Positions 16,801 to 34,196 are shown, numbered from the stretch's first letter. The stretch: 64,000 bases of DNA from an uncultured Candidatus Saccharibacteria bacterium (GCA_964618905.1 CAZUDK010000001.1:13982-77981), one strand, 5' to 3'. Notes: generated from the letters alone by a model not told the origin. Made by a program: numbers and translations.

Positions 16801-18273
16801 TGCTTCTGTCCTATCAACACTTGAACCTCTCAGACCAATGATATCCCAGTAAGAACAGTGCGACATCTCAAAAGCTTGATGCTCACCTCCATCTGCCGAA
16901 AGAAATGCCCTTCTTTCGCTTTGGGCTATCATGGTGATATGAGCATTTTCAGTACCATTTCTAGCATTAGCAGTACAGTCAATATCCGGCATGCCTGTAG
17001 TTTGCGGAGTATAGATGCCGTTCATTAATACGAGGATATCTCCAGGCCTGAGCTTTGGTATTGCTTTGCTGAAGGTCTTAAGAGGAGACACATCAGTAAG
17101 TCCGGAGTTGGAATCCGAACCGGTTGGAGAAATATAGTAAGCAGACCCAGAAGCATCAGGAATCTGACCAGTTTGATTCTTTGTAGAAATATTTACCTGA
17201 ATGCTTTCTGTGTTGCTTGAAGCTTTCTTTATGTCAGCACTTAAAGTATGCTGCCCGTCAGAAACAGACAGAGAGTCCCAAGTTGCCGTATAAGGAGCGG
17301 ATGTATCAGCAGAGCCAATATTTTTTCCATCTACTTTAAATTGAACACTCTCTACACGATCATTATCTGAAGGATCAACCTCCATTACTATTATGCCGGA
17401 GACCACCTGCCCTGAAACTGGTGAAGAGAACAAACTTACAGAATTTTGTTCAGAAGAATTTCCTGTGTCTGTACCTGCATCTTCATCATTACCTGGAGCT
17501 CTCACAGCAACAGCAGATGCCACCCATGATTGAGTAGCGCTTGTATTTAAAAGTTTCCAAGAGAAAGAAGCGCTTTCTACATTAGAGAACTTTCCTGCAA
17601 GACCCATGATACGCCTGCCGCTGGCAGAGTCTCCATCACCATCTAGTGTCCACAACACATTTTGTTTTCCGGGATTTGAAATTCCTAGATCTCTCTGGAC
17701 TATAAAGTTGCCAATCAAAAGATCAGTGGTGGCAGATGAAAGAGAAAGATTCGCAGTAGAGGTGTTTTGATTTCCTGAAACAGTGTATACCTGTCCGAAA
17801 GAATTATTAAGATTAGCTCCACTGATACTTAACACACCTGCTACAAAAGTAGTGTCCTTAGACACTGCCACATCAACGTTAGCAGTTCCTGTTGGAGGAT
17901 TTTTCAGATACCAAATTTCATTTCCGACGATATTAGATGACTGATTAAGAGGGGTTAGATCAATGCCTGAGTACTTTACGGAATTAATAGTTCCGCTTCT
18001 GTTGCCTAAAAGAACTATTAGTAGTCGATTAGTATCATTATTAGGAACTGTGTGTGGGAAAGAAAACTTATTTCCTATTGTTGAATACCCAGATTCAAAA
18101 GAAGAAGTTGAAGTTATTACAGGTGCAGAAATTTCAGAAGACAGCACATCTAATGTTGCAGCTGTAGGCAGCGCTTCATCATTAAAATTAAAATCTTTGA
18201 TTGCAAAAGAAGCAGTAAATACAACAACCGATATTCCTAAAATTAGAAATAAATTTTTACTTAAGGTACTCAT
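13816..18273 (-). CDS. Giant secreted or cell-surface protein of 1485 aa: signal anchor, Ig-like domains, parallel beta-helix, Big_2, TSP3 calcium-binding motif, two SH3b domains and a C-terminal coiled coil
   Basis: The N-terminus MSTLSKNLFLILGISVVVFTASFA is a signal or anchor sequence. The repeated SPY...DT...NGQHT...A.D..GN pattern fits Ig-like domains. The NxxG-rich repeats (e.g. VTIRRLYNNG...SNVIVENSILDG) fit a beta-helix. DSDNDGVNDGKDKCP is a TSP3 motif. Two NVRSQPS / NIRSGPS ...GW.AT.Y segments are SH3b domains. Confidence 0.85.
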   Translation of the reverse strand: MSTLSKNLFLILGISVVVFTASFAIKDFNFNDEALPTAATLDVLSSEISAPVITSTSSFESGYSTIGNKFSFPHTVPNNDTNRLLIVLLGNRSGTINSVKYSGIDLTPLNQSSNIVGNEIWYLKNPPTGTANVDVAVSKDTTFVAGVLSISGANLNNSFGQVYTVSGNQNTSTANLSLSSATTDLLIGNFIVQRDLGISNPGKQNVLWTLDGDGDSASGRRIMGLAGKFSNVESASFSWKLLNTSATQSWVASAVAVRAPGNDEDAGTDTGNSSEQNSVSLFSSPVSGQVVSGIIVMEVDPSDNDRVESVQFKVDGKNIGSADTSAPYTATWDSLSVSDGQHTLSADIKKASSNTESIQVNISTKNQTGQIPDASGSAYYISPTGSDSNSGLTDVSPLKTFSKAIPKLRPGDILVLMNGIYTPQTTGMPDIDCTANARNGTENAHITMIAQSERRAFLSADGGEHQAFEMSHCSYWDIIGLRGSSVDRTEAAGGKQRDVFQVVRSSNITLKKLLATHPNRYFNDHPIKILDSEYVLLEDSEIYDYQRHGLSVSRSQYVTIRRLYNNGRPNAPDEAIALYPASNVIVENSILDGEQHRGIEIHAGPNLLFNGLPGGHNNRLLGNISIGGVFAGYVDCRPVNVTGEDLGLRCPHGNVYKDYLVIGTQHPFMLRAGTGFTGTGGTHIENVTIINTPEAVLANEAPSDKGTDKICAGIPDGYECAFTVTNALVLGTSGNILSISTPKYKALMENSDIYNNSVQPSENISDTSGIYRRNISVNPKLAATPIYIPDDSPLKGAGKNGEDIGANILYRYVDGKLTNQPLWDLRTGAFPCGAIVPGVNDIPGQSCFDVHKRLNINAATLAAAYGTDIPTGSDNNTPPPVEVDNEYPEVSVESISSGDFVSGTIELKASASDNKGIAGVRFKIDGSNAGSEEIHSPYKILYDTANLTNGQHTITAVARDAYGNVTISSPVVFNVSNARPVDSISMSPNDAFLTVETGDTIQLSAVAKDSSGNLTGSPINWTTTNGVIASVSSTGLVTGHSVGTVVIYASAGGKSSHRAVTVVLPSMFPQGDSDNDGVNDGKDKCPGTPAALVSTVNQSGCVPPIANEFNIKSDLSDKDLKNVVNFELGVNNKGKIKFLESVSLVRDGERLNLDSYVHIEKNRITIESDKLPELNEPALITMYDIDMDNPVVYKDGQLCTNCTINSYSKTSGTLIFTVPGFSVYEVVEAPTEDTNPSTHSSGGIGYGIDYGDGADFDLSKLDDSDFEELTPVEAMQGTVKTLAALNVRSQPSLSASVLAVAPINSTGTVVSSEPVVADGYTWVKVQYSNGYTGWSATSYLSGLTTTATSYTPTAVSVTPVVTQTPTSSIISASDRIQSTSGLNIRSGPSLLSQVLSVVPNGVQGSVLSGPITADGYQWVEVKFDNGLAGWSATTYMVSLTHPIASPVYTGTSTDILRQQLILQIQQKIVELKQKISELEMQELSG

Positions 18274-18405
18274 AATTATTTATTTATCTTCTCCTATATG
18301 GAAGTCTTTATACTGCTACTGCTGAGATCACTATTAAAATTGTACATCCAATTTTTTTTGTATATATAAGACTTTTAAGATAGTGTGGATAGCATTTAAA
18401 AATTA

Positions 18406-18438
18406 TGTGCACCCAAATAATTCATACTCGGGTGCACA
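18406..18438. promoter_or_regulatory. 9-bp perfect inverted repeat (tgtgcaccc / gggtgcaca) with a 15-nt loop, inside a 330-bp AT-rich leader
   Basis: Seen directly in the sequence. It lies in the 18274-18603 intergenic region upstream of the giant surface-protein gene. Confidence 0.3.
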
Positions 18439-18603
18439 CATTAAATCTTTCAAGATATTAATTTCATTTAATAAAAATAGAGATCCATTATTATGATTTA
18501 AAAATGACTAAATACTTTATAAAGATTAATAAAGATACATTAAATTTAGCCTTGATATATCAATGTTTATATATCTTTTGCTGATAGATTTATTTAATCT
18601 TAA

Positions 18604-19185
18604 TTACTTTGCTTTTCTTCCAAGTTTATAGACTTTTCGCTTGATTCTTTCGCGTCGAGAAACACTTCCCGCATGTTTAAGATATCCGAATTTTTGAACC
18701 ATTATAGGAGAGAATCCTCCAAACCATAATATCCCCCGCTTGAGTTCATTAGTCGTATCTCCAAAGATGATGCGCTGAGCTAAAGGTACAGTATCTGAAG
18801 TAACAAACATTCTTGCGCTTCTGCCTTTAAGAAGTTTCTTCCAACTAAATTCACTGGTGAAGTGGAAAGCAAATCCTGGTATCCAAGTTCTATCAAAAAG
18901 TCCTTTTAGCAAAGCTGGCATTGTCGACCACCAAGATGGATAAAAAATTACGAAGTGATCGCACCAACGTATATTTTCCTGAAAAGAAACCAGACTCGGC
19001 TCAAGTTCCTGCACAAGCCTGTACCCGTGATGAAGTACCGGATCAAAATCCATATCAGCAAGATTCATTCTGCGCACTTGATGACCGACTTCATTTGCAC
19101 CTCTTTCGTAATGGTCAGCTAAAGTATAGTTGAAACTGTCATTATCCGGATGCCCAAGAAGAATAAAAATTTTTTTCTTTTTCAT
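18604..19185 (-). CDS. Flavodoxin-like NAD(P)H-dependent oxidoreductase (MdaB / KefF-like)
   Basis: MKKKKIFILLGHPDNDSFNYTLA...HFVIFYPSWWSTMPALLKGLFDR is the flavodoxin_2 signature. Confidence 0.7.
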   Translation of the reverse strand: MKKKKIFILLGHPDNDSFNYTLADHYERGANEVGHQVRRMNLADMDFDPVLHHGYRLVQELEPSLVSFQENIRWCDHFVIFYPSWWSTMPALLKGLFDRTWIPGFAFHFTSEFSWKKLLKGRSARMFVTSDTVPLAQRIIFGDTTNELKRGILWFGGFSPIMVQKFGYLKHAGSVSRRERIKRKVYKLGRKAK

Positions 19186-20342: not shown

Positions 20343-21122
20343 TTGAAGGATTGCAGGAGTGGCAAGCCATCTTGCAGCCCCAATATGCGGTCGTATAAGC
20401 CCATTATAGCTATGACAGAGCCAAAAGCACAGCAGAATACCAAGACCACCAAGTTCTCGTTCTACGAGGATTTTGATGGCAAATACCACAAGGTTGGAGA
20501 GATTCGTGAGCTTATCCCACAGTTCAAGGCGTTCTACCTTGCCGAGCGCCGTCGAGAACCAGAGCGAAGCGCTATCAAGATAATCAACGACTTCAACAAG
20601 AGCATCGCCCCATTCACTTTCTTTCCTTGGGAAAAGCAATACCGTTTATGGCGCAAGAAATGGGATGCTCAACTTTTGGCAGAACAAGGTTATCGAGAAG
20701 AACAACGAGCCGTGCGACAAATCATCAAAATGCGCGATGAACAGCAGGTTGCAATTGTGCCTGACGAATATGCGCTCGGGGCTGGCGCACGAACTCTTGC
20801 TGGCGAGCTGCTCAACGACGCAATGGAGATTCTCAAACAAGACCAAGAATCAGCAGAATTGTATGAAGACGATATTATCGTCAAACGTCGCAACTACGTG
20901 CTCAATGTGTTCAACTATGTAATGAAAGCATCTCACACCAAGGAAGCATTGAATATCAAAACAAACGCAGAGAAACGTGAGACCGCAAACTTTATGATGA
21001 GTATCTTGAATCGTGCAACCGCTGGCAAACTAACAGATGACGAAATGAGCTTGCTGCGTGCCTCGGTCAACCCTGGTCTTCGGGATGAGACCACAGATGT
21101 TCCTGTAACCACTCCTTCTTGA
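20343..21122 (+). CDS. Hypothetical protein, first gene of the island
   Basis: A 259-aa ORF. The start is uncertain and may be MTEPKAQQ at 20412. No recognised domain. Confidence 0.45.
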   Translation: MKDCRSGKPSCSPNMRSYKPIIAMTEPKAQQNTKTTKFSFYEDFDGKYHKVGEIRELIPQFKAFYLAERRREPERSAIKIINDFNKSIAPFTFFPWEKQYRLWRKKWDAQLLAEQGYREEQRAVRQIIKMRDEQQVAIVPDEYALGAGARTLAGELLNDAMEILKQDQESAELYEDDIIVKRRNYVLNVFNYVMKASHTKEALNIKTNAEKRETANFMMSILNRATAGKLTDDEMSLLRASVNPGLRDETTDVPVTTPS

Positions 21123-21258
21123 TAGGGCGATACACTGCGTCGAAAAGTGTCAGCAAGCTGGCTGCTTCTTCCATAGCAAGTTCATCAGAGATGTCCTCTC
21201 CTTTTTCTTCTTTGTAGATTCTTTTGAACTCCTCTAATGCTTCTTTTGAAACCATATT
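21067..21258 (-). CDS. Small hypothetical protein, tail of the RM operon
   Basis: From the internal start MVSKEALEEFKR. It is co-directional with the RM genes and abuts them. The 3' end overlaps a convergent ORF. Confidence 0.3.
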   Translation of the reverse strand, partial: NMVSKEALEEFKRIYKEEKGEDISDELAMEEAASLLTLFDAVYRPIKKEWLQEHLWSHPEDQG

Positions 21259-22078
21259 AGTACCAACATAACTCAACTGGTTCACCGATTTGTTCAGCAA
21301 TGTATTCAGTAACAGTGGTAAGGTCTCCAACCTTATCAATCAGCCCGTGTTCGAGCGCATCCATGCCAAGGTAAGTAAGTCCGTTAGCAAGCCCCGCGAC
21401 TTTTTCTCTTTCAAGATTTCTGTTTGATGCAACTTCATCAACAAACACTTCGTGTATCTTCTTTATGTCAGAAAGTACGGCTGCACGTTCCGTTGCGTTT
21501 AGTGGACGTGATGGGTCTCCTGCATCCTTGTGTGGAGCTGATGACAGCTCAACATAGGTATAACCCTCCTGTGCATTTTTGCGGGTCTCATCGAGATACG
21601 ATGCGGTAACACCGATACTCCCTACATCAGAAATGCGAGAGGCAAAAACCGTGTCTGCACCCGTAGCTGCCCAATATGCAGCAGATGCTCCGACAGAACG
21701 GATAAGAGCCACGGATGGCTTATCAAGAGCTTTGAGAGCGTTGGCTACTTCTTCGCCAGTGGTAATATCTCCGCCAAAAGAATCAATAGAAAGCAGGAAC
21801 GCTTTGATTTGTGGGTTACCTTCTGCATAGTGAATAGCATCCACAATGTATTCCGATGAAGCTACATCAGATTCAAGCCCCTCGGCACTCGTCTCGGTAG
21901 TGTACGTTGCCAAGTAACCGTTCATATTAGAAACAAGTACATTACAGCTTGCAGGTATTTCTGCGTCTGCGTATTCATCCTCATACGAACCAGCCCACGC
22001 GCCCACAATAAGAGCAATGATTGCTGTAATGATTATGAGAATGATTGCTGTTTTCTTTTTCATGATGTTTTCTCCCAT
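21257..22078 (-). CDS. Membrane-anchored S49 family serine peptidase (SppA-like)
   Basis: The N-terminal TM segment is [23 protein letters not shown]. The S49 core is [15 protein letters not shown]...[11 protein letters not shown]. The MKKK start overlaps the hsdR stop as ATGA. Confidence 0.75.
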
Positions 22079-25000
22079 ACGTCAGCGAATAATTCCGCTT
22101 GCTTCAATACCGTTTCAGTAGCGATTGCTTGCTTGTCTGGCGGATAACCAAATTGTGCAAGGGTTCGCTTCACAAGCACGCGCAGACGTGCCTGTACGTT
22201 CTCACGGATAGTCCAGTCAATTGAGGTGTTCTTGCGAACCTTATCAACAAGCACTCGTGCAAGGTCTCGTAGATTTTCATCACCAAGCACCTCTCGTGCG
22301 CTGTCGTTGATTGCAAGTGCATCATAGAAAGCAATCTCGTCATCAGAAAGTCCCAAGTCCTTACCCCGCGCATCCTCCTCGCTGATTTTCTTTGCAAGTT
22401 CAATAAGTTCCTGGATGACTTCGGAAGCGGTCAATAGATTGTTCTGGTACTTCTTGATTGTCTTATCAAGTAGTTCAGATAACTTCTTTCCTTGGATAGC
22501 ATTGCGACGCAAACGCAGCTTGATTTCATCATTCAAAACTTTGCGCAACAGTTCCATTGCCAAGTTGCGATGCTTCATCCCTTGAACTTCGGCAAGGAAC
22601 TCGTCAGACAACACAGAAAGGTCTGGCTTTTGTACACCAGCCGCTGCGAAAATGTCCACGACACCTTCGGCAACAAGTGCCTGGTCAACAATCTGGCGAA
22701 TAGCCGAACCGATGTTTTCAGTTCCTGGCGTACCTTCTGGTTCAAACTTTACCAGGCGTGCCTTGATTGCCTGGAAGAAGCCGACTTCATCACGTATCTC
22801 CATTGACGCTTCGCTCGGCACTGCAAGTGCGAACGATTGAGAAAGCGCCATAGTTTCTTTTATGAACCGCTCTTTAGCACTCGGTGTTTTGCGTTCTTTG
22901 CCTGATACACCAACTTCTTCGCCTTTATCTTGTCCAAGAATATGCTCCTGCGCTTCAAGGATAATACCGAGCTTCTGGTGTGTGTCAGCAGCGAAGTATC
23001 GCTGGTAGTCAAAGTCATGGAACATTGCTTTTACTACTTCGTATTTCTCCATCATCACCTCAATAGCTTGCTCCTGTGTATTTGTCGGTTCACCCTTACC
23101 GCCACTTTGCGTGTACACAGCAAGTGCCTTCTGCAAGTCAGCAGCAAATCCAATGTAGTCAACAATAAGACCTCCTGGCTTGTCCTTATAGACACGATTC
23201 ACACGGGCGATAGCTTGCATCAAGTTGTGCCCACGCATGAGCTTATCAACGTACATCGTATGCAAACACGGCACATCAAATCCTGTTAGCCACATGTCCC
23301 GCACAATAACGAGCTGCAATGGATTCGCGGCATCCTTGAATCGTTCAGCAAGTTTTCGGCGATTTTCTTTATTTGTATGGTGTGGTTGAAACTCTCGCGG
23401 GTCGCTTGAGCTTGCCGTCATCACCACTTTGATTGTGCCTTTATCCAAATCGTTACTATGCCAATTAGGACGTAGTGCGACTATCTCCTCGTATAGCTCA
23501 ACAGCAATACGACGACTCATTGCTACTATCATGCCTTTGCCAGTAAATACTTCTTGGCGTGCTTCAAAGTGTTCAACAATATCCTTCGCTACTTGTTTTA
23601 TTCGTTCACGATTACCAACAATAGCTTCAAGCTGTGCCCACTTTGCTTTGGCTTTTTCTTTGGTGGTGAACTCAACACCTTCTGCTACTGCTTCAACGTC
23701 TTCATCCATCTCTGCTTTCTTGTCGTCAGGTAGGTGCACCTTCACAAGTCGGCTTTCATAGTAGATTGGCACCGTTGCCTTATCTTCAACAGCACGCTGG
23801 ATGTCATACACATCAAGATATTCACCGAATACAGCAGGGGTTGATTTGTCTTCTTTTTCAACAGGCGTACCAGTAAAACCAATGAATGAAGCGTTAGGAA
23901 GTGCGTCGCGTAGATACTTCGCATTACCATATCGAGTGATTGCTTCATCGTCTTTGAAAACTGTTCGAGCAGCAAACCCATATTGACTACGGTGCGCTTC
24001 ATCAGCCATCACAACGATATTCTTGCGGTCAGTGAGCATGTCGTACGTCTCACCTCCGTTTTCGGGAAAGAACTTCTGAATCGTAGTAAATACAATTCCT
24101 CCTCCCGCTGTTTGTAGCAATTTCTTCAAGTGTTCACGACTTTCTGCCTGCACTGGTTCTTGTCGTAGCAAACCACGACTTGCAGCAAAGGTATCAAAAA
24201 GTTGGTCATCCAAATCATTGCGGTCGGTAATAACAACAACGGTTGGGTTGTCGAGAGACAAAACCACCTTACCTGTATAGAACACCATAGAGAGCGACTT
24301 GCCCGAACCCTGCGTATGCCACACCACTCCAATTTTTCTTTCACCATGTTCAGCTGTTGCCTGTACTGTTGAGCCAATCGCTTTGTTCACCACGTAATAC
24401 TGGTGGTAAGCGGCAATTTTCTTGATAGTTTCGACGATGGTTTGTCCCGTTTTTGCATCTTCGCGTCGCGCTTTTTCAAAAACCGTGAAGCTGCGTACTA
24501 CATCAAGGAGCACCTCTGGTATGAGCATCTCTTGAACCAAAACCTGCATCTGCGGAGTGGTCTTTTCTTTCTCACGTTTTCCTTCTGGGGCACGCCATAC
24601 AGCGAAACGCTCCCAATTTGTAGTAAGAGCACCTGCTTTAGCGTCGATACCATCTGATGCGACAAGCACGCTGTTGTATGCAAAGAGCTGTGGTATTGCT
24701 CGCTTGTAGTTGTCGAGTTGTGTATATGCTTTATGTACTGTGGCATTTTCATCCACTGGATTTTTGAGTTCAATGACAACGAGCGGCAAGCCGTTCACGA
24801 TAAGTACCACGTCTGGGCGCTTGCTTGAATTATCAAAAGGAACTGTGAATTGGTTAGAAACAACCAAGTCATTGTTGCGTGCATTATCAAAATCTATGAG
24901 ATGAACAATCTCTCCACGTTGTTCTCCGTCGTTGTAGTCGTGTACGCTTACACCATCAGTAAGCATCCGTTGGAACTCCTCATTTGCTTCCGCAAGGAGT

Positions 25001-25227
25001 GGTTGTGACGCCACTTGCAGCACCTTCTTGATGGCGTCTTCTCTTGCATCTTCGGAAACATTTGGATTGAGGCGTTCTACGGCAGCACGTAAGCGTGATT
25101 GCAAAATAACCTCACGCAAATCACCGCGCTCTGCTTCTTGCTCGTCTGGGGCAAGGTAGGTGTAGCCCTGCTGTTCAAGCAGTTCGACAACCCATTTTTC
25201 TATATCGCTTTCGTAGATTCGGCTCAT
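22060..25227 (-). CDS. hsdR: Type I restriction enzyme R subunit
   Basis: 1055 aa. Helicase motifs include HTQGSGKS and MADEAHRSQ, with characteristic HsdR length and a C-terminal helical domain. Confidence 0.95.
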
Positions 25228-25229
25228 AA

Positions 25230-26036
25230 CTAAAATAATGTTTTTGATATCTTACGCACGCCAGTAATAAGGTCATCAATCTCTTGCTCCTTCGGCTCCC
25301 GACCTTTCTTGTGGTCACAGAGATTGCGAATATCAGCAAGAAACTGAACATTCCTCCACACAGGAACATCAATCACTGTGGCATTCTTGAGGGCGTCGTT
25401 ATAGTCAGCAATTGTCGGCTTCGCTTTCTTGATAGCTGTACTATGGTTGGCACAAACCTCTCTCAAGTGTGCCTCCAACACCACACCAGCCAAAGCACCA
25501 GCCGCTCGCAGAAAACCCTTTTTCTTGAGTTCTTCTGCTGCGTCCAATTCGTTATCAAACAAGTCTGCTTGAAGAAGTGCTCGTATATCAAACAACGAAC
25601 TCTCAAAGGTCTTTTTGAGTGCTTCTATAATGTTCACCTGCTGTTTGAACTTCGGAACAGCAGCATCCTGCCCAACAACCTTTGTTTTTTCATACCCACG
25701 AGTGACACTCATACCGTTCAGATAATCCTGTATGACATAGTTTTCATAGTTGATTGAGTCGGTTTTTCGATTCTTTGCTGGTCGGTAGTACGACACAAAA
25801 TCATCAACTCGTGACGGTAGAATCTGCTGCAAAACAGCAAGGGCTTCTGAATACCATGGCTGGTATTCTTCACTAAATTGCCCGACGGCTTTTTTGGTTT
25901 TTGCAACCGTGTCCTTGTCCAGCCCTGACCGCTCAAGTTCTTCCGCACTAAAACAATCAATAATCATCCTGTAATACAGGACATTGCCCTTGTCCACGAG
26001 TTTCTTTATGTCTTCTTTGTATTTTTCTGTTTTCAT
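25230..26036 (-). CDS. DUF4145/HEPN-like protein with an Rx4H motif, embedded between hsdS and hsdR
   Basis: The C-terminal [13 protein letters not shown] gives R-x4-[21 protein letters not shown] resembles the DUF4145 helical core. It is tightly coupled, with a 4-nt overlap to hsdS and a 2-nt gap to hsdR. Confidence 0.5.
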
Positions 26037-27259
26037 ACTTTTATTTCGCCACTTATTAGCCGAGGTAACAATGCGTCACGTGTAGAAGATAACGCTTTGA
26101 TACTTCGTATATTCAAAAGGATTTTGTCGAAAATCGGAGATGAGATTTTTGAAAATGATTCAAGTAATTTTGCAGGGGGTAAAGCGGTTTCAATACGACG
26201 AAACGAACTTTTACTAATTTCCATGAACGTAGAACCATTCGCTGCTGCAAGAATGAGGGGCATGTTTGCTTTCAACCAAAGAAAAGTAAAGAGGTTGTCC
26301 CAAGGACTGCGTGCATTGATAGCTATGTATCCTTGATTGATTGCAACTGGTATAGCAGAGATTGCGATGTATCCAATTGGGGCACGTGAAGAAAGAAGTA
26401 AAGTACCTACTGGCAGTAGTCCACTACTAATACGTGTCAATCCCTTATCTGTAATCCGACTGTTGGTATCGAGCAGGAAAGCGTCTGGTCTATCAGACAA
26501 ATCCTTTGGTGTCGTCCAGTGAATGTCTCCGTCCCAATACTCGGGATTTTTTGTTGAGGGCGTTGTGCCTCCTTTTACGTCGAGTATATCGTCGAGTGTG
26601 CCCATTTCCCAGTCATGAGGTAGTGCATCATCAATCGTTGGCTTCAAAAACCACTCATTGAAAATTGTTTGAGCAATTCGTTCTAACGTCTCGTTTTGCT
26701 TTTTGAGTAATTCAATTTTGTCATCCAAACATTGAAGAACATCTACGATTGATTGTTGTGTTGTTACTGGTGGTAAATCAATCACAGTTGATTTGAGATT
26801 GGTGACGGGTTGAGCAAGTGACGGGACGCCGACCTGATTGGCGTATGTCATGAGTTGATGCAGACCCTGTGGAGAGTGAAAGTAGTAAGTTAGAAACTCG
26901 GCAGAAAGTTTCTTATTTGGTCGTAAATAAAATTGTCGTTGGGAAAGAATGTATCGTTCGTATTTTGAGTTTTTAGGAATATAGGCGACTTGTCCAATGT
27001 TTCCAGCATGAGTAAAAACTACATCACCTCGTTGTACATTCGCGCTCGAAAGTCGGTCAGCATGTTCAGGAGTAATAAAATTGTACGCTACGTCAGCAAG
27101 ACGGATACCACGAAGGTGAGCACCGCTAATTACAGGCACCCCCTCTTCAACAAAAGTATCAACCTTGATATTAGACCCAAACGGACCCATCGCAATTTTC
27201 TCGGCAACTTCGCCGAGTGTTGTTTCCTGCCATTCTTTTTTAGTCGTTGTCTTCGTCAT
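26033..27259 (-). CDS. hsdS: Type I restriction-modification specificity subunit
   Basis: Two target-recognition half-domains are separated by the conserved helical spacer LKKQNETLERIAQTIFNEWF. Confidence 0.9.
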   Translation of the reverse strand: MTKTTTKKEWQETTLGEVAEKIAMGPFGSNIKVDTFVEEGVPVISGAHLRGIRLADVAYNFITPEHADRLSSANVQRGDVVFTHAGNIGQVAYIPKNSKYERYILSQRQFYLRPNKKLSAEFLTYYFHSPQGLHQLMTYANQVGVPSLAQPVTNLKSTVIDLPPVTTQQSIVDVLQCLDDKIELLKKQNETLERIAQTIFNEWFLKPTIDDALPHDWEMGTLDDILDVKGGTTPSTKNPEYWDGDIHWTTPKDLSDRPDAFLLDTNSRITDKGLTRISSGLLPVGTLLLSSRAPIGYIAISAIPVAINQGYIAINARSPWDNLFTFLWLKANMPLILAAANGSTFMEISKSSFRRIETALPPAKLLESFSKISSPIFDKILLNIRSIKALSSTRDALLPRLISGEIKV

Positions 27260-27263
27260 GGTT

Positions 27264-27896
27264 TTATTCTGTTTGCCCGTCGCGCTTGGCTATGTTTTCG
27301 CGGTCTTCTTCTGGCAAGCTGCCATACAAAGCATCAATCTCTTGTGGCTCGGTAATCATTTTTTCTGCAATGATATTCACCAAGCGAAAAAGTGCTTCGG
27401 CAGTTTGTGGCTGGTCATCAAGGTTTATCTGTCCAGGATGCACAGCATGGTTGCCGATAACTCGTACCGTATCGAGCATTTGCTGTACCTTCTTCGGTAG
27501 TCCGTTCTCAACAAGAGTTGCTATATCGGTATTGAGGTTTTTGCCTTCACCTCCAACAGATGCACAAAGCTTCTGAATAGCGAGACGTAAAAGAGCGGCT
27601 GCTGCTCGTGGTGACTTTTGTACAATTTGCGCGGCTTCCTCGTAGTCACGCTTCACTTCTGTCGGCAGGTCACTGCTTGGCTTCTCAACAGGAGTATTCG
27701 TTGGTCGTATCATTTCACCGTAATACCAAACAGAAAAATCCTTACACTGGCTACAAATCGCAATACTCAATCCTTGAATATGTGCGTTGCCTTGTGTCCA
27801 CGTACCACTCCATGTTTGGTGTGCATACGCAGTACAATGCGGGCAGTTGAACGCATTTCCATTTAGATATGGGACTGTGTAGGGTATGTCTGTCAT
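27264..27896 (-). CDS. DUF4145/HEPN-like protein with an N-terminal zinc ribbon, embedded between hsdM and hsdS
   Basis: CPHCTAY...CSQC forms the zinc ribbon. [15 protein letters not shown]...[14 protein letters not shown] gives the Rx4H motif. Confidence 0.55.
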
Positions 27897-29521
27897 AGGT
27901 TGAATCCAATTTTCTTTAGCTGCTTCTCAATCTCGACATTGAGTTTTTCCTCCTCCTTTATCTGCTCCTTCAAAGTAGAGGTGAGGCGTGCCATTTTTTC
28001 TTCAAACGGCTCACCATCATCTTCAATAACGGCTGCACCGACATAACGTCCAGGAGTAAGAACGTAATTATGCTTTTGAATATCGGGCAATGTGGCAGAC
28101 TTACAGAAACCTTTGATGTCTTTGTATTTGCTTTCTTTGCTGCGCCATTCGTGATACGTGCTGGTGATTTTCTTCACCACTTCGGGCGTGAACTCACGAT
28201 GCGTACGGTCTACAAGATGTCCCATCTCCGAAGCGTCAATAAAGAGCACTTCGCCTGTACGCTTGCGGTCTCCGTTTCCGAGACGCTTGCGTGATATGAA
28301 CCAAAGACATGCAGGAATACCAGTGTTATAGAAAAGTTGTTTTGGAAGGGAGACAATACAATCTACGAGGTCAGCATCAACAATGTTTTTACGAATCTCA
28401 CCCTCGCCACTTGATTGAGAAGAGAGGGAGCCATTCGCCAAGACCATTGCCATGACACCCTTCGGAGCAAGGTGATGAATCATGTGCTGCATCCATGCAA
28501 AGTTGGCATTGTTTGCAGGTGGTGTGCCGTACTGCCATCGTGGGTCATTTTTCACAATATCCCAACCCCAGTCACTTTGATTGAATGGTGGATTGGCGAT
28601 GATGTAGTCAGCTTTCAAGTCAGGATGTGCGTCTTTGAGGAAAGAACCTTCGCTATTCCATTGCACCTGCGAACTATCAATACCGCGAATGGCAAGGTTC
28701 ATGCGAGCCAAACGATAGGTGGTGTGATTGCTTTCTTGTCCGAAGATAGAAATGTCATCAATACGTCCACGATGTGAGAGTACAAACTTCTCACTCATCA
28801 CAAACATACCGCCAGAACCACAAGCGGGGTCATAAACGCGTCCTTTATGTGGCTCAATCATTTCAACCATCAGCTCAACAATACTGCGAGGTGTATAGAA
28901 CTGTCCGCCTTTCTTTCCTTCGGCTGCCGCAAACTCACCAAGGAAGTATTCATACACACGACCGAGGATGTCTTTTGATTTTGCAGCTTCATCGCCCAAC
29001 GCAATGTTCCCGATAAGGTCAATGAGGGCACCGAGCGCGAGTTTATCTATGTTTGGAGTGGCATACACCTTCGGCAAAATACCCTTGAGGGTAGGGTTCG
29101 CTTTCTCAATCGCATCCATTGCTGCATCCAAATCCTTACCGACGCTTGGTTGCTTTGCTCGTGAATGAAGAAATGACCATCGCGCCGTTGGTGGTACCCA
29201 AAAGACATTTTCTGCACGGTATTCATCTGCATCTTCGGGGTCTGCGCCCGCATATTCAGCATCACCAGATAAAAGTTTCTGATGCAGCACCTCGAAGCTA
29301 TCAGAAATGTATTTCAAAAAAATGAGACCGAGAACAATGTGTTTGTATTCCGCTGCGTCTATGTTTTTGCGGAGTTTATCAGCAGCCGAAAAAAGCTGGC
29401 TTTCAAAGCGTCCGTTTGTATTCTCTGTACCTGCGTCTTTTTTGCTTTTAGTTTTCATTTCTTTTTTGATGCCCGCTTCTTGGGTTGCACGTTCACGTTT
29501 GCTTCTATGAACTTCGCCCAA
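27893..29521 (-). CDS. hsdM: Type I restriction-modification N6-adenine DNA methyltransferase
   Basis: [10 protein letters not shown] is the SAM motif and IIANPPF is the catalytic NPPF. The probable true start is MKTKSKKD at 29458, which overlaps the upstream HTH gene stop as ATGA. Confidence 0.95.
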
Positions 29522-29661
29522 TCGTCTTTATGTATTCGCCAGGTACCCAGGCGTACCGCCTTTAGTTTTCCTTCCTTGATATAGCGATACAAAGTGCGTT
29601 CGCTGATACCGAAACGCTCCACTATATCCTTTACCCGCAATAACTCTTCTTTGTTTGGCAT
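29455..29661 (-). CDS. Excisionase/AlpA-family HTH protein at the head of the RM operon
   Basis: [53 protein letters not shown] is an Xis-type winged HTH. The ORF track extends it to 29745. The palindrome tgccatggca lies upstream. Confidence 0.55.
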
Positions 29662-29985
29662 AATGATGGCTCTTACGGGGAGTATTTTAGCACTTTTCTG
29701 CCATTTTTGCCATGGCAGCAGAGGCAGAGTTGGCAAATTATCCACAGAACATGTTCTTGCGTTCTACTTTCAAGAATAGATATAATCAGGATGTCGGTAG
29801 TTCATTGACTAAAAAGTTTGCAGACAATTAGCAAGGGTACGAGCATTAGCCAGGCATAACTAAAGCGCTCGCTTTAGTCGCAGAGGCAGCAGCATTACGC
29901 CCCGCATAAAAAGTAGCAAGTAACACGCAATCGCGTTGTTGTTTCCTTCTTTTTGCGCGGGGCTTTCTCTTTTGAGCAACCCCAC

Positions 29986-31104: not shown

Positions 31105-31377
31105 TTGGGTCAAGTGGATAAAACACACATATTCAAATCATTGTATTGCACTAAAGAACCAAAAGCAGATATGAACGACGAAATGAAAAACCAAAGCGGG
31201 CGGGCGGCAACGATAAGTGTAAGTGCTGTTGCTGCCGACCTCGGTGTATCACGCGCAACGGTGTTGCGTTGGATTCGTGCAGAAAAAATCCAGGGCTTCT
31301 TCCGAATAGGAACGAAGTGGCTCATCCGTCGAGAGGATTATGAGCATTTTATCAACCGTCAGATAGGCGAAAAGTAA
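31105..31377 (+). CDS. Excisionase/MerR-like HTH DNA-binding protein
   Basis: ISVSAVAADLGVSRATVLRWIRAEKIQGFFRIGTKWLIRREDYEHFI is an Xis-family HTH. Confidence 0.6.
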   Translation: MGQVDKTHIFKSLYCTKEPKADMNDEMKNQSGRAATISVSAVAADLGVSRATVLRWIRAEKIQGFFRIGTKWLIRREDYEHFINRQIGEK

Positions 31378-31379
31378 CT

Positions 31380-31607
31380 ATGAACAACAAACAAGACAAC
31401 AATGAAGATAAGAAGGATTGGTTAGGACAACTTGTCTTCTGGCTCACTATCGGTGTTCTCGTGTTTAGCATCACAACTTTGCTTGGCTATCTCAATGAGC
31501 ATGTTGATTTTGAGGTGACATCGAGCAATGTCGGCTTTGTGGAGTTTTCTATCTTGGTAGCATTGGTCGTTCTTTTGACTCTTGGCGGATTGTTCAGGAA
31601 AAAATAA
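31380..31607 (+). CDS. Small two-TM membrane protein
   Basis: Two hydrophobic segments. It is coupled to the flanking genes. Confidence 0.4.
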   Translation: MNNKQDNNEDKKDWLGQLVFWLTIGVLVFSITTLLGYLNEHVDFEVTSSNVGFVEFSILVALVVLLTLGGLFRKK

Positions 31608-31609
31608 CC

Positions 31610-32515
31610 ATGAATAAACTCATCACACAATTTGTACACTACCTTTCAGCCGAGCGTAACTTCTCGGAACGTACGGTTCGTGCGTATGAGTTAGATTTGC
31701 AGAAGTTTGTTGAGTTTTTGGAATCTCGCAACACTACAGACATTTCAGAAGTTGCTCGTGATGACATTCGCGCTTTTCTTTCAGAACTAACTAAAAACGG
31801 AATCAAGAAGCCAAACAGTGCCGTAACTCGTGCTCGCAAGCTCTCCTCAATCAAGTCCTTCTATAAGTATCTTGTTCGTTACGGAGTGCTCGAATCAAAC
31901 CCCGCCGCAGATGTTGAAACACCAAAGCTGCCTCATAAAGAACCGAATTATCTTACTCCCCAAGAATATGATGCGTTGCTTGTAGCAGTACGGCGTGCCG
32001 CAACACCTTTTTACCTTGCGCGTGACCTTGCTATCGTCACCACTTTCCTCAATACAGGTGTTCGTCTATCTGAACTTGTAGGGCTGTCTCTCAATAGCAT
32101 CAATCTCGAATCATCAAATGCTTTTATCAAGGTGCGCGGTAAGGGAGACAAAGAGCGCACCATCCCACTAAACGACAACGTTGCAGCAACACTGCGCAAG
32201 TATGTAGCGAAACGCCCAGAAGTTGATACTAACCAACTGTTCATCAGTAGATTGGGAAAGGGGCTTTGCGCAAGAAGCGTATATCACCTTATCAAGCGCT
32301 ACCTAAAAGAAGCAGGAATCAAGAAAGACCGTATTGGTGTTCACTCACTACGTCATACATTCGGCGCTTCACTCCTCGCAAAGAATGTGAACCTTGTCGT
32401 CATTCAAGAACTTCTGGGGCACAAAAAACTTGAAACAACCCGCAGATACCTTCACATCAACAGCGTTGACCTACGCAATGCGGTTGACCGTTTGGCATTA
32501 GACACACAACCATGA
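31610..32515 (+). CDS. Tyrosine site-specific recombinase (XerC/XerD-like integrase)
   Basis: An N-terminal SAM-like core-binding region is present. HSLRHTF and RRYLH carry the catalytic His and Tyr. It is 301 aa. Confidence 0.85.
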   Translation: MNKLITQFVHYLSAERNFSERTVRAYELDLQKFVEFLESRNTTDISEVARDDIRAFLSELTKNGIKKPNSAVTRARKLSSIKSFYKYLVRYGVLESNPAADVETPKLPHKEPNYLTPQEYDALLVAVRRAATPFYLARDLAIVTTFLNTGVRLSELVGLSLNSINLESSNAFIKVRGKGDKERTIPLNDNVAATLRKYVAKRPEVDTNQLFISRLGKGLCARSVYHLIKRYLKEAGIKKDRIGVHSLRHTFGASLLAKNVNLVVIQELLGHKKLETTRRYLHINSVDLRNAVDRLALDTQP

Positions 32516-34053: not shown

Positions 34054-34064
34054 GCTAAGGGCCC
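33989..34064 (-). tRNA. tRNA-Ala(UGC)
   Basis: Folded by hand. The acceptor is GGGCCCU/AGGGUCC with a G3:U70 pair. The anticodon loop is UUUGCAA. The T-loop is UUCGAAU. The discriminator is A and CCA is encoded. Confidence 0.85.
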
Positions 34065-34122
34065 AATAAAAGGAAAGTATAGTAGACAAGCAGGGAAAAA
34101 TCAATCAAAATATCGGCCAATA

Positions 34123-34196
34123 GGGCCTATAGTATAGTAGTAACACACGTCCATGGCATGGACGAGTCCGGGGTGCGATTCCCCGTAGGTCCACCA
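34123..34196 (+). tRNA. tRNA-Ala(GGC)
   Basis: The acceptor is GGGCCUA/UAGGUCC with G3:U70. The anticodon loop is AUGGCAU. The T-stem is CGGGG/CCCCG. CCA is encoded. It is divergent from tRNA-Ala(UGC) across a shared 58-bp region. Confidence 0.8.

Follow-up and report, generated by a model that had tools for sequence, protein, structure and literature searches.

Layout of the operon and its type I restriction-modification genes

The window, the whole stretch of DNA analysed here, is 64,000 nucleotides long, and between 21067 and 29745 its minus strand carries eight co-directional genes, all of whose open reading frames were confirmed at the coordinates below. Their order in the 5' to 3' direction of the operon is HTH, hsdM, gene 1, hsdS, gene 2, hsdR, S49, and small ORF, preceded by an inverted repeat.

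29698-29718, minus strand: inverted repeat CTGCCAT-N7-ATGGCAG, candidate operator, 37-57 nt upstream of the HTH ATG
29455-29661, minus strand: small HTH_17/excisionase-type DNA-binding protein, putative regulator, 68 aa from ATG 29661
27893-29458, minus strand: hsdM, type I N6-adenine DNA methyltransferase, 521 aa from ATG 29458, with NPPF at residue 289
27264-27896, minus strand: gene 1, RAZR/PD-T7-4 orthologue, 210 aa, with a Cys4 zinc ribbon at the N-terminus and a DUF4145-type HEPN RNase domain at the C-terminus
26033-27259, minus strand: hsdS, type I specificity subunit, 408 aa, with two target-recognition domains
25230-26036, minus strand: gene 2 ("gene B"), two-domain HEPN protein, 268 aa, with an alpha-rich N-domain (residues ~1-165) and a C-terminal HEPN domain
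22060-25227, minus strand: hsdR, type I restriction/translocase subunit, 1055 aa
21257-22063, minus strand: S49 (SppA-type) serine peptidase, 268 aa from ATG 22063, with a hydrophobic N-terminal stretch, putatively an anchor
21067-21255, minus strand: small acidic ORF, 62 aa from ATG 21255

Four of the junctions, as read from the sequence, were ATGA overlaps (HTH/hsdM, hsdM/gene 1, hsdS/gene 2, and hsdR/S49), with the hsdM and S49 start codons at ATG 29458 and ATG 22063, and the remaining junctions were gaps of 4 nt (gene 1/hsdS), 2 nt (gene 2/hsdR), and 1 nt (S49/small ORF, the latter starting at ATG 21255). These overlaps and short gaps confirmed the tight string of co-directional genes that a preliminary description of this DNA had proposed. 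The 3' end of the string is marked by a plus-strand open reading frame (20343-21122) that converges on the small ORF.

HsdM matched N6_Mtase (2.8e-111) and HsdM_N (4.5e-24) in Pfam and MTase_I (5.6e-201) in PADLOC, and among solved structures it matched PDB 3khk (1e-145) and EcoR124 M (1.3e-41). HsdS matched Methylase_S in two stretches (1.8e-41) and the PADLOC model Specificity_I (1.3e-93), and hsdS was the most divergent gene among the six related operons compared (20-60% identity), as is expected from shuffling of its target-recognition domains. HsdR had a PD-(D/E)xK-type region at residues ~132-155 (...IELK), a Walker A GSGKS at 307, and DEAH at 409, and was matched by HSDR_N (4.5e-51), SWI2_SNF2 (1.1e-79), T1RH-like_C (1.1e-127), and TIGR00348 (2.9e-192); its C-terminal domain was HindI-like, and its sole solved relative was EcoR124 HsdR (~1e-35). 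Every restriction-modification (RM) domain and catalytic motif of the three subunits was intact (NPPF, GSGKS, DEAH, and PD...ELK), and the RM genes look functional from their sequences. Of EcoR124 (type IC) and EcoKI, the former is the closer relative of the operon. The nearest named relatives suggest that the genome is of Parcubacteria type (CPR). An identity as MADS was rejected because the NCBIfam scores were far below their cut-offs (MADS1, 18.9 bits versus 80; MADS2, 60.4 versus 720; MADS5, 30.4 versus 400) and also because PADLOC gave the genes much higher scores as standard type I subunits.

The Xis-type HTH gene that had been placed at the head of the operon was upheld by matches of its product to HTH_17 (5.9e-13, Pfam), TIGR01764 'excise' (34.4 bits versus a cut-off of 28.8), and mad1 (1.5e-12, PADLOC) and by its recurrence in related operons, with homologous HTH_17 genes of 60-62 aa found upstream of hsdM in L172 and L173. 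The HTH_17 gene is thus a recurrent head of these operons, and its product probably acts as the autoregulator of the operon. The mechanically called open reading frame extends beyond ATG 29661 to GTG 29745. The inverted repeat overlaps the -35 element of a weak sigma-70-like site (29713 to 29684; ATGGCA-18-TAAAAT, with TG), and L172 carries CTGCCAAACCTTGCCAG at the equivalent place upstream of its HTH gene. The repeat and the sigma-70-like site may be the operator and promoter of the operon, although this is only a lead, and the assignment is weak because the promoter scan overall was not above background (8 sites found versus 15.1 expected).

The two HEPN proteins

Both of the genes inserted among the RM genes had been proposed to encode HEPN proteins, and both proved to do so, gene 1 by orthology to RAZR and gene 2 by its fold and an invariant RNxxxH motif. 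Residues 5-208 of the gene 1 protein aligned with positions 3-209 of the 211 in the PADLOC PD-T7-4 profile (2e-85), and the protein was 47% identical to PDB 9y9c_OA across 198 residues (3.2e-57). Its earlier assignment as a zinc ribbon joined to a DUF4145-like HEPN domain was correct, as shown by this orthology, a Pfam DUF4145 match (8.2e-18), and the Cys4 set C18, C21, C48, and C51 (motifs CPHC and CSQC), which was invariant in 25 homologues. The string RVIGNH that had been named as its HEPN signature is literally present, but in the same 25 homologues H150 was variable (H/N/E/D) while R145, N149, and H153 were invariant. Since R145 and H153 also align with the experimentally essential R146 and H154 of E. 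coli RAZR, the true catalytic motif is R-x7-H. The residues of the oligomer salt bridge in E. coli RAZR (D179, D180, and R184) correspond to E178, K179, and E183 in gene 1, which are near-invariant in its clade and could form a salt bridge of swapped polarity. By sequence, then, gene 1 is a full-length RAZR/PD-T7-4 orthologue with all key residues conserved.

PD-T7-4/RAZR is a published single-gene abortive-infection RNase (PMC9519451, PMC13017515), and RAZR cloned in E. coli defends alone, with phage ring proteins as its direct trigger (PMC13017515). Gene 1 shares with it the full-length architecture, the Cys4 zinc ribbon, the conserved linker, and the DUF4145 HEPN domain with its essential Arg and His. 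It differs in the charge swap at the salt-bridge residues and in lying inside a type I operon, between hsdM and hsdS, in a CPR-like genome, whereas an overlap with an integrase gene has been reported as frequent for PD-T7-4 and its homologues (PMC9519451). In L174 and L175, RAZR relatives occur as single genes within defence islands.

Gene 2 had no family match above threshold in Pfam, NCBIfam, or PADLOC. Its AF2 model was confident (pLDDT 87.6) and has the four-helix HEPN fold, and the protein carries a conserved R-x4-6-H motif: R237, N238, C240, D241, and H242 were invariant in 25 diverse homologues from many phyla, which bears out the RNLCDH motif noted for this gene. Together, the modelled fold and the invariant motif identify gene 2 as a HEPN protein. 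It is not, as had been suggested, DUF4145-like. Membership in Pfam DUF4145 was rejected (15.3 bits versus a cut-off of 23.1; E, 0.021), comparison of the gene 2 profile with the RAZR profile by hhalign gave a probability of 1%, and no profile similarity was found to the RAZR, Abi_C, or DUF3644 proteins of these operons.

Among 8000 candidates scored, 3512 homologues of gene 2 were found at E <= 1e-3. The N-domain is specific to the family, which had the same architecture of ~260 aa throughout 791 clusters, and conservation reached 50-60% identity across phyla. Only about 9 of 80 genome loci with gene 2 had type I genes nearby, and no conserved partner gene was seen, the commonest neighbour family occurring at 4 of 70 loci; neighbours included integrases, transposases, AbiV, SduA, AbiJ, and KAP NTPases. 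Homologues were present in 37 IMG/VR contigs and on a single plasmid-collection record (1.9 Mb), which we read as a chromid, and none was found in the sequenced phage genomes searched. Both HEPN genes belong to families found mainly away from RM loci. That of gene 2 is widespread, no published description of it was found, and it is the new element of the operon.

Cargo slots and the S49 peptidase in related operons

At the hsdM/hsdS junction (slot 1), the window, L082, L172, and L173 carry RAZR, and L081 carries a DUF4145 relative (46% identical). In other related operons the same junction holds a ClpP-like protease (L087), a KAP NTPase (L001), a DUF1016/YhcG nuclease (L038), or RhuM with KilA-N (L077). 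At the hsdS/hsdR junction (slot 2), gene 2 is carried by the window, L001, L038, L077, L081, L082, and L087, DUF3644 by L172, and Abi_C by L173, all of which are HEPN families. Both inter-subunit junctions thus act as slots for interchangeable cargo. In L081, gene 2 was 87% identical to that of the window despite identities of only 42% for hsdR and 50% for hsdM, demonstrating that cargo has moved between operon lineages. These findings do not sustain the earlier claim of an integrated composite: the HEPN genes behave as swappable cargo in two slots, with families found mostly outside RM loci. Nevertheless, loose clustering in an island would not need the tight ATGA overlaps that couple hsdS to gene 2 and hsdR to S49, and this counts against a view of autonomous cargo. 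In addition, all five operons with RAZR or the DUF4145 relative in slot 1 had a HEPN gene in slot 2 (gene 2 in three, DUF3644 in one, and Abi_C in one), a co-occurrence that could reflect functional pairing rather than independent cargo in what is a small sample of mostly related CPR lineages.

The S49 protein matched Peptidase_S49 (1.1e-28) and TIGR00706 (1.8e-38; 132 bits, below the equivalog cut-off of 155). Its GASAAY motif (S127) and K179 were conserved in three homologues, and these two residues are the putative Ser-Lys catalytic dyad of SppA-type peptidases. At the N-terminus, KKK precedes a hydrophobic stretch that resembles a membrane anchor, and the ATGA overlap with the hsdR stop suggests that S49 is probably co-transcribed with hsdR. 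S49 follows hsdR in L082 and L087 and is not present there in L001, L038, L077, L172, or L173, so that most related operons are without it. Compared to the window, identity fell from 96% for hsdR to 74% for S49 in L082 and from 87% to 57% in L087. Type I genes lay within 6 kb at about 9 of the 80 loci with S49 homologues, most of these loci having no RM gene in that range, and the homologues at 40-63% identity mostly had no RM gene within 6 kb and had heterogeneous upstream neighbours.

The small ORF had no family match in Pfam, NCBIfam, or PADLOC. Its homologues adjoin S49 in L087/L088, L092, L093, L095, and L096, and in L096 no RM gene was detected in the 6-kb upstream flank; L092 and L095 are ~2-kb contigs and uninformative on RM linkage. 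The ORF at the corresponding position in L082 was not homologous to that of the window. The small ORF thus travels with S49 and not with the RM genes. Both appear to be host genes that adjoin the defence module and are transcribed with it, without belonging to it. The proposal that the protease is a module member consequently failed on its absence from most related operons, its fast divergence, and its homologues mostly lacking RM genes, although this dismissal is not certain, because peptidases are repeatedly found next to type I systems (M48 in the RRDM island described below, YgjP-like in L093, and ClpP-like in L087).

Relation to known systems and proposed working of the operon

The arrangement had been thought not to be a described, named system. 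That view was overturned, since gene 1 is the named PD-T7-4/RAZR and HEPN toxins in type I operons have been published; the layout is a variant of a known theme whose new part is the gene 2 family. In EcoprrI, prrC lies between hsdS and hsdR. PrrC of EcoprrI and several HEPN families are known from type I and III RM loci (PMC3506569, PMC3632139, PMC3710099), and prrC co-localises with hsdMSR (PMC3506569). EcoprrI (type IC) and the operon described here both have a HEPN RNase gene inside a type I hsd operon, co-expressed and with no separate antitoxin, and both would join restriction to translation shut-off, as predicted here from sequence. Gene 2 differs from PrrC in having no sequence relation to it, in belonging to a family mostly unlinked to RM (hsd linkage at only ~9 of 80 loci), and in lacking an ABC-ATPase domain (no Walker A and no ATPase match even at E <= 10 in its 268 aa). 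A PrrC/RloC-type anticodon nuclease identity for gene 2 was therefore rejected: it is located in an hsd operon, but the N-terminal ABC-type NTPase domain was not found.

HEPN families reported in RM operons include DUF4145, DUF3644/EC042_2821, AbiJ/Abi_C, AbiU2, and ApeA, with DUF4145 already listed as fused to a zinc ribbon and as linked to R-M in operons (Anantharaman et al. 2013, PMC3710099). The genes studied here resemble these in being solo HEPN genes within an RM operon, and gene 2 differs in matching none of their Pfam models. The RRDM island of EPEC has the order RptR-hsdM-hsdS-DarT-DarG-hsdR-M48 peptidase, and its authors regarded the hsdS/hsdR site as a likely recombination hotspot and reported RptR to fall outside every known class of regulator (PMC12255303). 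Both loci begin with a small regulator, followed by type I RM genes with an abortive-infection module between hsdS and hsdR, and end with a predicted peptidase. They differ in the regulator (HTH_17 versus RptR), in having single-gene HEPN RNases here rather than the DarTG toxin-antitoxin pair, in the second slot (hsdM/hsdS) also being filled here, and in the peptidase (S49, an apparent host neighbour, versus M48). The resemblance is one of layout only, as none of the eight proteins was assigned to DarT, DarG, or M48 in Pfam, PADLOC, or NCBIfam.

We consider it probable that the locus is an intact type I RM operon in which each of two slots holds a self-contained, single-gene HEPN RNase, forming a modular, layered defence. 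Its RM genes and RAZR orthologue bring together restriction and at least one homologue of an abortive-infection RNase proven by experiment. The intact domains and motifs suggest that HsdM2S would methylate host DNA and that HsdR2M2S would translocate and cut unmodified incoming DNA. The gene 1 protein would exist as a latent oligomer with a zinc ribbon for binding large phage proteins of ring shape, portals among them; once assembled around such a ring, it would have an active HEPN site (R145/H153) and would cleave single-stranded RNA, stopping translation and aborting infection. Latent oligomer, ring binding, and cleavage of single-stranded RNA have been shown for E. coli RAZR (PMC13017515), and this mechanism is transferred to gene 1 on the basis of 47% full-length orthology and conservation of all key residues. 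The gene 2 protein may be a second, unrelated HEPN RNase and further abortive-infection effector, with its family-specific N-domain the likely sensor or regulator. Since the operon genes appear to be co-transcribed and translationally coupled, restriction and the two back-up RNases would be made together.

The evidence favours autonomous modules swapped by recombination over an integrated machine. In one version of the latter, the Hsd complex would hold one or both HEPN proteins latent, as a guard of the PrrC kind, until an anti-restriction factor or stalled restriction fired them. Gene 2 is translationally coupled to hsdS, has the position of prrC in EcoprrI, and recurs in slot 2 even where hsdR is only 30-42% identical. 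That position is also occupied by DarTG2 in RRDM (PMC12255303), the slots are paired in all five relevant operons, and the presence of no antitoxin gene fits the immunity-suicide coupling hypothesis (PMC3506569). We nevertheless regard such a guard as unlikely, given that ~90% of the gene 2 homologues, across 80 genome loci, lack both a neighbouring RM gene and a conserved partner, that RAZR in E. coli acts by itself, with phage ring proteins triggering it directly (PMC13017515), and that gene 2, at only 268 aa and with no P-loop, is without the ABC-ATPase domain that regulates PrrC. Still broader is the idea that all eight genes, including HTH, S49, and the small ORF, form one immunity system, the protease serving in signalling, effector activation, or restriction alleviation. 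The overlap of the S49 start with the hsdR stop, the recurrence of S49 after hsdR in L082 and in L087 although the slot 1 cargo of L087 differs, the ~9 of 80 S49 homologue loci with type I genes within 6 kb, and the peptidases near other type I systems (YgjP-like, ClpP-like, and the M48 of RRDM; PMC12255303) agree with it. It is made quite improbable by the five operons with no S49 after hsdR, the drop in identity at the hsdR/S49 boundary, the small ORF not conserved in L082, and the varied, mostly RM-free surroundings of the 40-63% S49 homologues; moreover, an anchor with positive residues first would be predicted to leave the catalytic domain on the outer side of the membrane, apart from the Hsd and HEPN proteins.

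For gene 2 as an RNase effector in our preferred modular reading, the alternative is that it is not a toxin, being instead a non-catalytic or regulatory HEPN protein, such as an adaptor that binds nucleotides or proteins, or one that specifically processes the hsd transcript and so tunes HsdR expression. A cognate antitoxin was not seen, the conservation of gene 2 across phyla is unusual for a defence gene, and it was not found in the phage genomes searched and only on the one chromid-like record, all of which would suit such a role. We find this role highly improbable in view of the full R-N-x3-H signature being invariant in 25 diverse homologues and of the same slot accepting DUF3644 and Abi_C, families of predicted or known abortive-infection effectors. 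The integrases, transposases, and defence genes among its neighbours and its homologues in IMG/VR contigs likewise argue against it.

Layout of the operon and its surroundings

The ORF listing confirmed that eight genes, all in one direction on the minus strand, occupy positions 21067 to 29745, and the gene order proposed in the preliminary description agreed with the domain assignments from Pfam, PADLOC, and NCBIfam: an HTH_17/excisionase-type HTH gene, hsdM, a DUF4145 protein gene (gene 1), hsdS, the gene for a family-less 268-aa protein (gene 2, here gene B), hsdR, an S49 peptidase gene, and a family-less small ORF. Read from the sequence, four junctions (HTH/hsdM, hsdM/gene 1, hsdS/gene B, and hsdR/S49) are ATGA start/stop overlaps and three are short gaps, of 4 nt between gene 1 and hsdS, 2 nt between gene B and hsdR, and 1 nt between the S49 gene and the small ORF. 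The mechanically called ORFs of the HTH gene, hsdM, the S49 gene, and the small ORF start farther upstream than their likely true starts, which are the ATG codons at 29661, 29458, 22063, and 21255, respectively. A convergent plus-strand ORF (20343-21122) lies at the 3' end of the gene string, and approximately 370 nt of noncoding DNA and divergent small ORFs lie at its 5' end. No RNA families were found inside the operon with Rfam. The main features discussed here are as follows.

25230-26036, minus strand: gene B, of a putative HEPN family without a library match
27264-27896, minus strand: gene 1, RAZR/PD-T7-4
29698-29718, minus strand: inverted repeat CTGCCAT-N7-ATGGCAG, upstream of the HTH gene and overlapping the -35 element of a weak promoter-like site
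31105-31377, plus strand: second HTH_17 gene, upstream of the operon
31380-31607, following the second HTH_17 gene: small ORF with a hydrophobic stretch, as read from the sequence
31610-32515, plus strand: tyrosine recombinase
32512-34053, plus strand: large serine recombinase, overlapping the tyrosine recombinase and running into tRNA-Ala
33989-34064, minus strand: tRNA-Ala(tgc), into which the serine recombinase ORF runs
34123-34196, plus strand: second tRNA-Ala, tRNA-Ala(ggc)

The restriction genes look functional, since HsdM carries the motif NPPF and HsdR carries a PD...ELK region, GSGKS, and DEAH, together with a HindI-like C-terminal domain. The sole solved relative of HsdR was EcoR124 (approximately 1e-35), and for HsdM, EcoR124 M (1e-41) was a nearer relative than EcoKI M (7e-20). 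Membership in the methylation-associated defence system, raised by PADLOC matches to mad1, mad2, and mad5, was rejected: the NCBIfam models for that system scored far under their cut-offs and ordinary type I models scored much higher.

The first gene of the operon, both in the window and in two homologous loci from our censuses, L172 and L173, is an HTH_17 gene of 60 to 68 aa. The HTH proteins of L172 and L173 are 39% and 31% identical to that of the window, respectively; the gene is thus a real part of this operon lineage. The inverted repeat upstream of it is a possible operator of the HTH_17 protein and would fit an autoregulator, and L172 has CTGCCAAACCTTGCCAG, with TGCCA repeats, at the equivalent place; we treat this as only a lead. 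Promoter and terminator scans did not rise above the shuffled background.

The region from 31105 to 34196 resembles a mobile element's integration module. Large serine recombinases also adjoin the operon in L172 and L173, and because recombinases lie near the operon in all three, an integrative element probably carries or adjoins it. A search around the integrase and tRNA-Ala genes gave no att-like direct repeats. The nearest named relatives were Parcubacteria-group genomes (Parcubacteria 21-54-25, Niyogibacteria, and Kaiserbacteria), and the window is probably of CPR origin. Elsewhere in the window, a 1,485-aa ORF (13816-18273, minus strand) has a hydrophobic segment at its N terminus and stretches of repetitive, low-complexity sequence and resembles a large surface or secreted protein, and a Flavodoxin_2/FMN reductase gene (18604-19185, minus strand) lies in a local GC dip (18001-19000, 0.32 versus approximately 0.44). 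L173 also has a Flavodoxin_2 gene a few kilobases upstream of its related restriction-modification (RM) operon, which may reflect shared island content or conserved synteny.

Two HEPN-type genes

Gene 1 matched the PADLOC PD-T7-4 model end to end (2e-85) and PDB chain 9y9c_OA with 47% identity across 198 residues (3.2e-57), which places it in the RAZR/PD-T7-4 family; the cryo-EM entry 9y9c belongs to the paper on the "ring-activated zinc-finger RNase" (PMC13017515). In that work, the E. coli RAZR gene by itself gave abortive-infection defence against two SEC-phi phages as well as T3 and T7. Large rings of phage protein (Gp77 or portal) are bound by the zinc-finger domain and become surrounded by polymerising RAZR, whose DUF4145/HEPN domain then cuts single-stranded RNA; residues R146 and H154 are essential (PMC13017515). 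In an alignment of 25 homologues, the four zinc-ribbon cysteines, R145, N149, and H153 of gene 1 were invariant and position 150 was variable. The preliminary description had called gene 1 a HEPN protein from an R-x4-H motif, RVIGNH. The HEPN call held and the motif did not: with R145, N149, and H153 fixed, position 150 variable, and R145/H153 aligned to R146/H154 of E. coli RAZR, the functional motif is, as judged from the alignment, R-x7-H, and R-x4-H is a coincidence of the window gene 1 sequence. DUF4145 had already been listed as a HEPN family with zinc-ribbon fusions and in operons with RM genes (Anantharaman et al. 2013, PMC3710099). With gene 1, RAZR is seen outside its published host, in a Parcubacteria-like (CPR) genome and within a restriction operon. 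At residues 178 to 183, this clade has E178, K179, and E183 where E. coli RAZR has D179, D180, and R184, which were reported as necessary for higher-order oligomerisation; the charge swap might keep an inter-dimer salt bridge.

Gene B matched no family at threshold in Pfam, NCBIfam, or PADLOC, and its score against DUF4145 was 15.3 bits, below the cut-off of 23.1. Its homologues were numerous, with 3,512 at an E value of 1e-3 or lower among 8,000 candidates scored and at least 495 loci in a one-genome-per-species collection. Many bacterial phyla and archaea have homologues with 50 to 60% identity, and every hit bearing a name was called "hypothetical." R237-N238-x-C240-D241-H242, along with E188 and H190, was invariant in 25 diverse members. 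An R/H pair was therefore kept across the homologues of both genes, in line with the HEPN reading proposed for them at the outset. The AlphaFold model of gene B was confident (pLDDT 87.6), with residues 1 to 165 forming an alpha-rich domain with a small hairpin. This N-terminal domain matched nothing else; a search with it of 1.84 billion representatives gave 791 clusters at 50% identity, and the best 150 representatives were without exception 314 aa or shorter with the domain at the N terminus, so the architecture is fixed and shuffling of the domain onto other effectors was rejected. Comparison by hhalign of the gene B profile with gene 1 alone, the RAZR profile, the L173 Abi_C protein, and the L172 DUF3644 protein gave no significant relation, and the gene B assignment to HEPN thus rests on the modelled fold and the motif; the alignment profile had zero hits against PDB sequences. 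The family has a full HEPN catalytic signature yet matches no model in Pfam, NCBIfam, or PADLOC. Gene B is a new candidate defence gene.

Proposed cargo slots and the probable limits of the module

Type I genes adjoined or lay near gene B in only approximately 9 of 80 genome loci. Its commonest neighbour family accounted for 4 of 70 at most, and the neighbours ranged from housekeeping genes to integrases, transposases, AbiV, SduA, AbiJ, KAP, and AAA_15. Inside RM operons, gene B was placed between hsdS and hsdR (in L001, L038, L077, L081, L082, and L087), with a different order in L063 (hsdM, a PIN-like ORF, gene B, a further ORF, and then hsdS). The other junction, between hsdM and hsdS, held various genes.

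Cargo at the hsdM-hsdS junction of operons carrying gene B
Window and L082: RAZR
L081: DUF4145 protein, 46% identical to the window RAZR
L087: ClpP-like protease
L001: KAP NTPase
L038: DUF1016/YhcG nuclease
L077: RhuM plus KilA-N

Gene order of the operons with closer RAZR relatives
L172: HTH_17, hsdM, RAZR, hsdS, DUF3644, hsdR
L173: HTH_17, hsdM, RAZR, hsdS, Abi_C, hsdR

In L172 and L173, the operon was kept and the gene between hsdS and hsdR was different; more distant RAZR relatives were solo genes in defence islands. DUF3644 and Abi_C are HEPN families listed among defence or abortive-infection effectors and were previously noted in RM operons (Anantharaman et al.). Because gene B has the HEPN signature and is replaced at the same slot by these families, there is good circumstantial evidence that it is a single-gene defence RNase, which makes it worth testing. 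Compared to the window, L081 was 87% identical in gene B and only 42% in hsdR, 50% in hsdM, and 46% in RAZR, values which indicate that cargo moves independently of the operon. On our reading, one lineage of type I operons has two slots prone to recombination, and these hold autonomous effectors encoded by single genes, most of them HEPN RNases. Both junctions would then act as exchange sites for defence cargo, where published work pointed to hsdS-hsdR, and would offer a practical route for mining new effectors.

Gene B homologues were also present in 37 IMG/VR contigs (L176 to L212), several of them right at the contig edge, and on one 1.9-Mb record of a plasmid collection; none matched among 50,697 deposited phage genomes. 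Many of the 37 contigs, judging from their identifiers, are presumably prophage calls, in which case gene B may be prophage-edge cargo or host DNA within such calls.

The preliminary description had included the S49 peptidase in a composite system, a view that the comparisons did not bear out. Only L082 and L087, the closest relatives, have the S49 gene after hsdR, and identity to the window drops at the hsdR/S49 boundary from 96% to 74% in L082 and from 87% to 57% in L087. The S49 gene is missing after hsdR in L001, L038, L077, L172, and L173, and the ORF at the place of the small ORF in L082 is not homologous. A metagenome scan with a three-sequence alignment gave 80 S49 homologues (the single S49 protein as query gave no hits). 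Most of the 80 had no RM gene within 6 kb, and the genes upstream of them were heterogeneous, the most distant homologues following phage portal genes, and homologues of the small ORF adjoin S49 in L087/L088, L092, L093, L095, and L096, with L096, at least, having a long upstream flank free of RM genes. Since these observations point to S49 being a neighbouring host gene, we conclude that S49 and the small ORF are probably a host gene pair on a shared transcript. RM genes near approximately 9 of the 80 S49 loci would favour a role in the module, as would the recurrence of peptidases beside type I systems (YgjP-like in L093, ClpP-like in L087, and M48 in an enteropathogenic E. coli [EPEC] island), and we nevertheless consider such a role very improbable. 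An S49 protease degrading HsdR in "restriction alleviation" is also unlikely, given its apparent membrane anchor and poor RM linkage.

Probable autonomy of the effectors and known systems

Sequence and homology show that the type I system encoded by the operon is intact, that its RAZR orthologue retains every essential residue, and that the second protein combines a predicted HEPN fold with an invariant catalytic motif. The HTH protein would repress the operon promoter, and restriction would act first, on unmodified DNA. RAZR would fire as portals or other ring-shaped phage proteins build up and would then cleave RNA, halting translation; gene B would be a second latent RNase whose N-terminal domain senses a cue. 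The modules are most likely autonomous, because E. coli RAZR works alone, approximately 90% of gene B homologues lie outside RM loci, and cargo is swapped between operons. The main rival is a PrrC-like guard, with one or both HEPN proteins kept latent by the Hsd complex. In its favour are the place of gene B in the operon, its translational coupling, and the repeated presence of a HEPN protein at that slot; we nonetheless hold the guard to be unlikely. Slightly less likely still is a broader reading in which the double-HEPN type I operon (HTH, hsdM, RAZR, hsdS, a second HEPN gene, and hsdR) is functionally integrated and typical of CPR bacteria: the second HEPN protein would guard the restriction complex, held latent via HsdS or HsdR and freed by phage anti-restriction, RAZR would independently sense virion assembly, and linked peptidases (S49, ClpP-like, and YgjP/M48) would help to control HsdR or the RNases.

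The statement that the arrangement is not a described system proved true only narrowly, because RAZR/PD-T7-4, PrrC/EcoprrI, the EPEC RRDM island, and immunity-suicide coupling are precedents. In PrrC/EcoprrI, too, the HEPN RNase lies within an hsd operon; gene B is not a member, since it has neither an ABC-ATPase domain nor obligate RM linkage. The RRDM island (RptR-hsdM-hsdS-DarTG-hsdR-M48) has a similar layout with different parts, and its authors called hsdS-hsdR a probable hotspot (PMC12255303). The general principle is that of immunity-suicide coupling (Makarova, Anantharaman, Koonin, and Aravind; PMC3506569, PMC3632139, and PMC3710099), and the coupling of restriction to RNase-mediated suicide, known since PrrC, is unchanged here. 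What is new is the gene B family, without a match in the family libraries or literature searched, the use of both junctions as cargo slots, and the recurrent double-HEPN configuration in CPR-type operons.

Peptidase genes occurred in several other arrangements. On contig Ga0247841_10006051, two S49 paralogues (L141 and L133) flank a type I RM system, and in L093 a YgjP-like metallopeptidase (1093-1782) lies between hsdR and S49. In L087 (1645-2190), and also in L088 and L089, a 181-aa cytoplasmic ClpP-like protease (PF00574, 2.2e-17) occupies the hsdM-hsdS junction in place of RAZR; gene B is 89% identical in these relatives. In a Pacebacteria genome in which RM was not detected, gene B has as its neighbour a related, divergently oriented ClpP-like ORF (6e-10; L006, 9396-9971, minus strand). 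The ClpP-like ORFs may be protease cargo or may reflect a link between gene B and a ClpP-fold protease.
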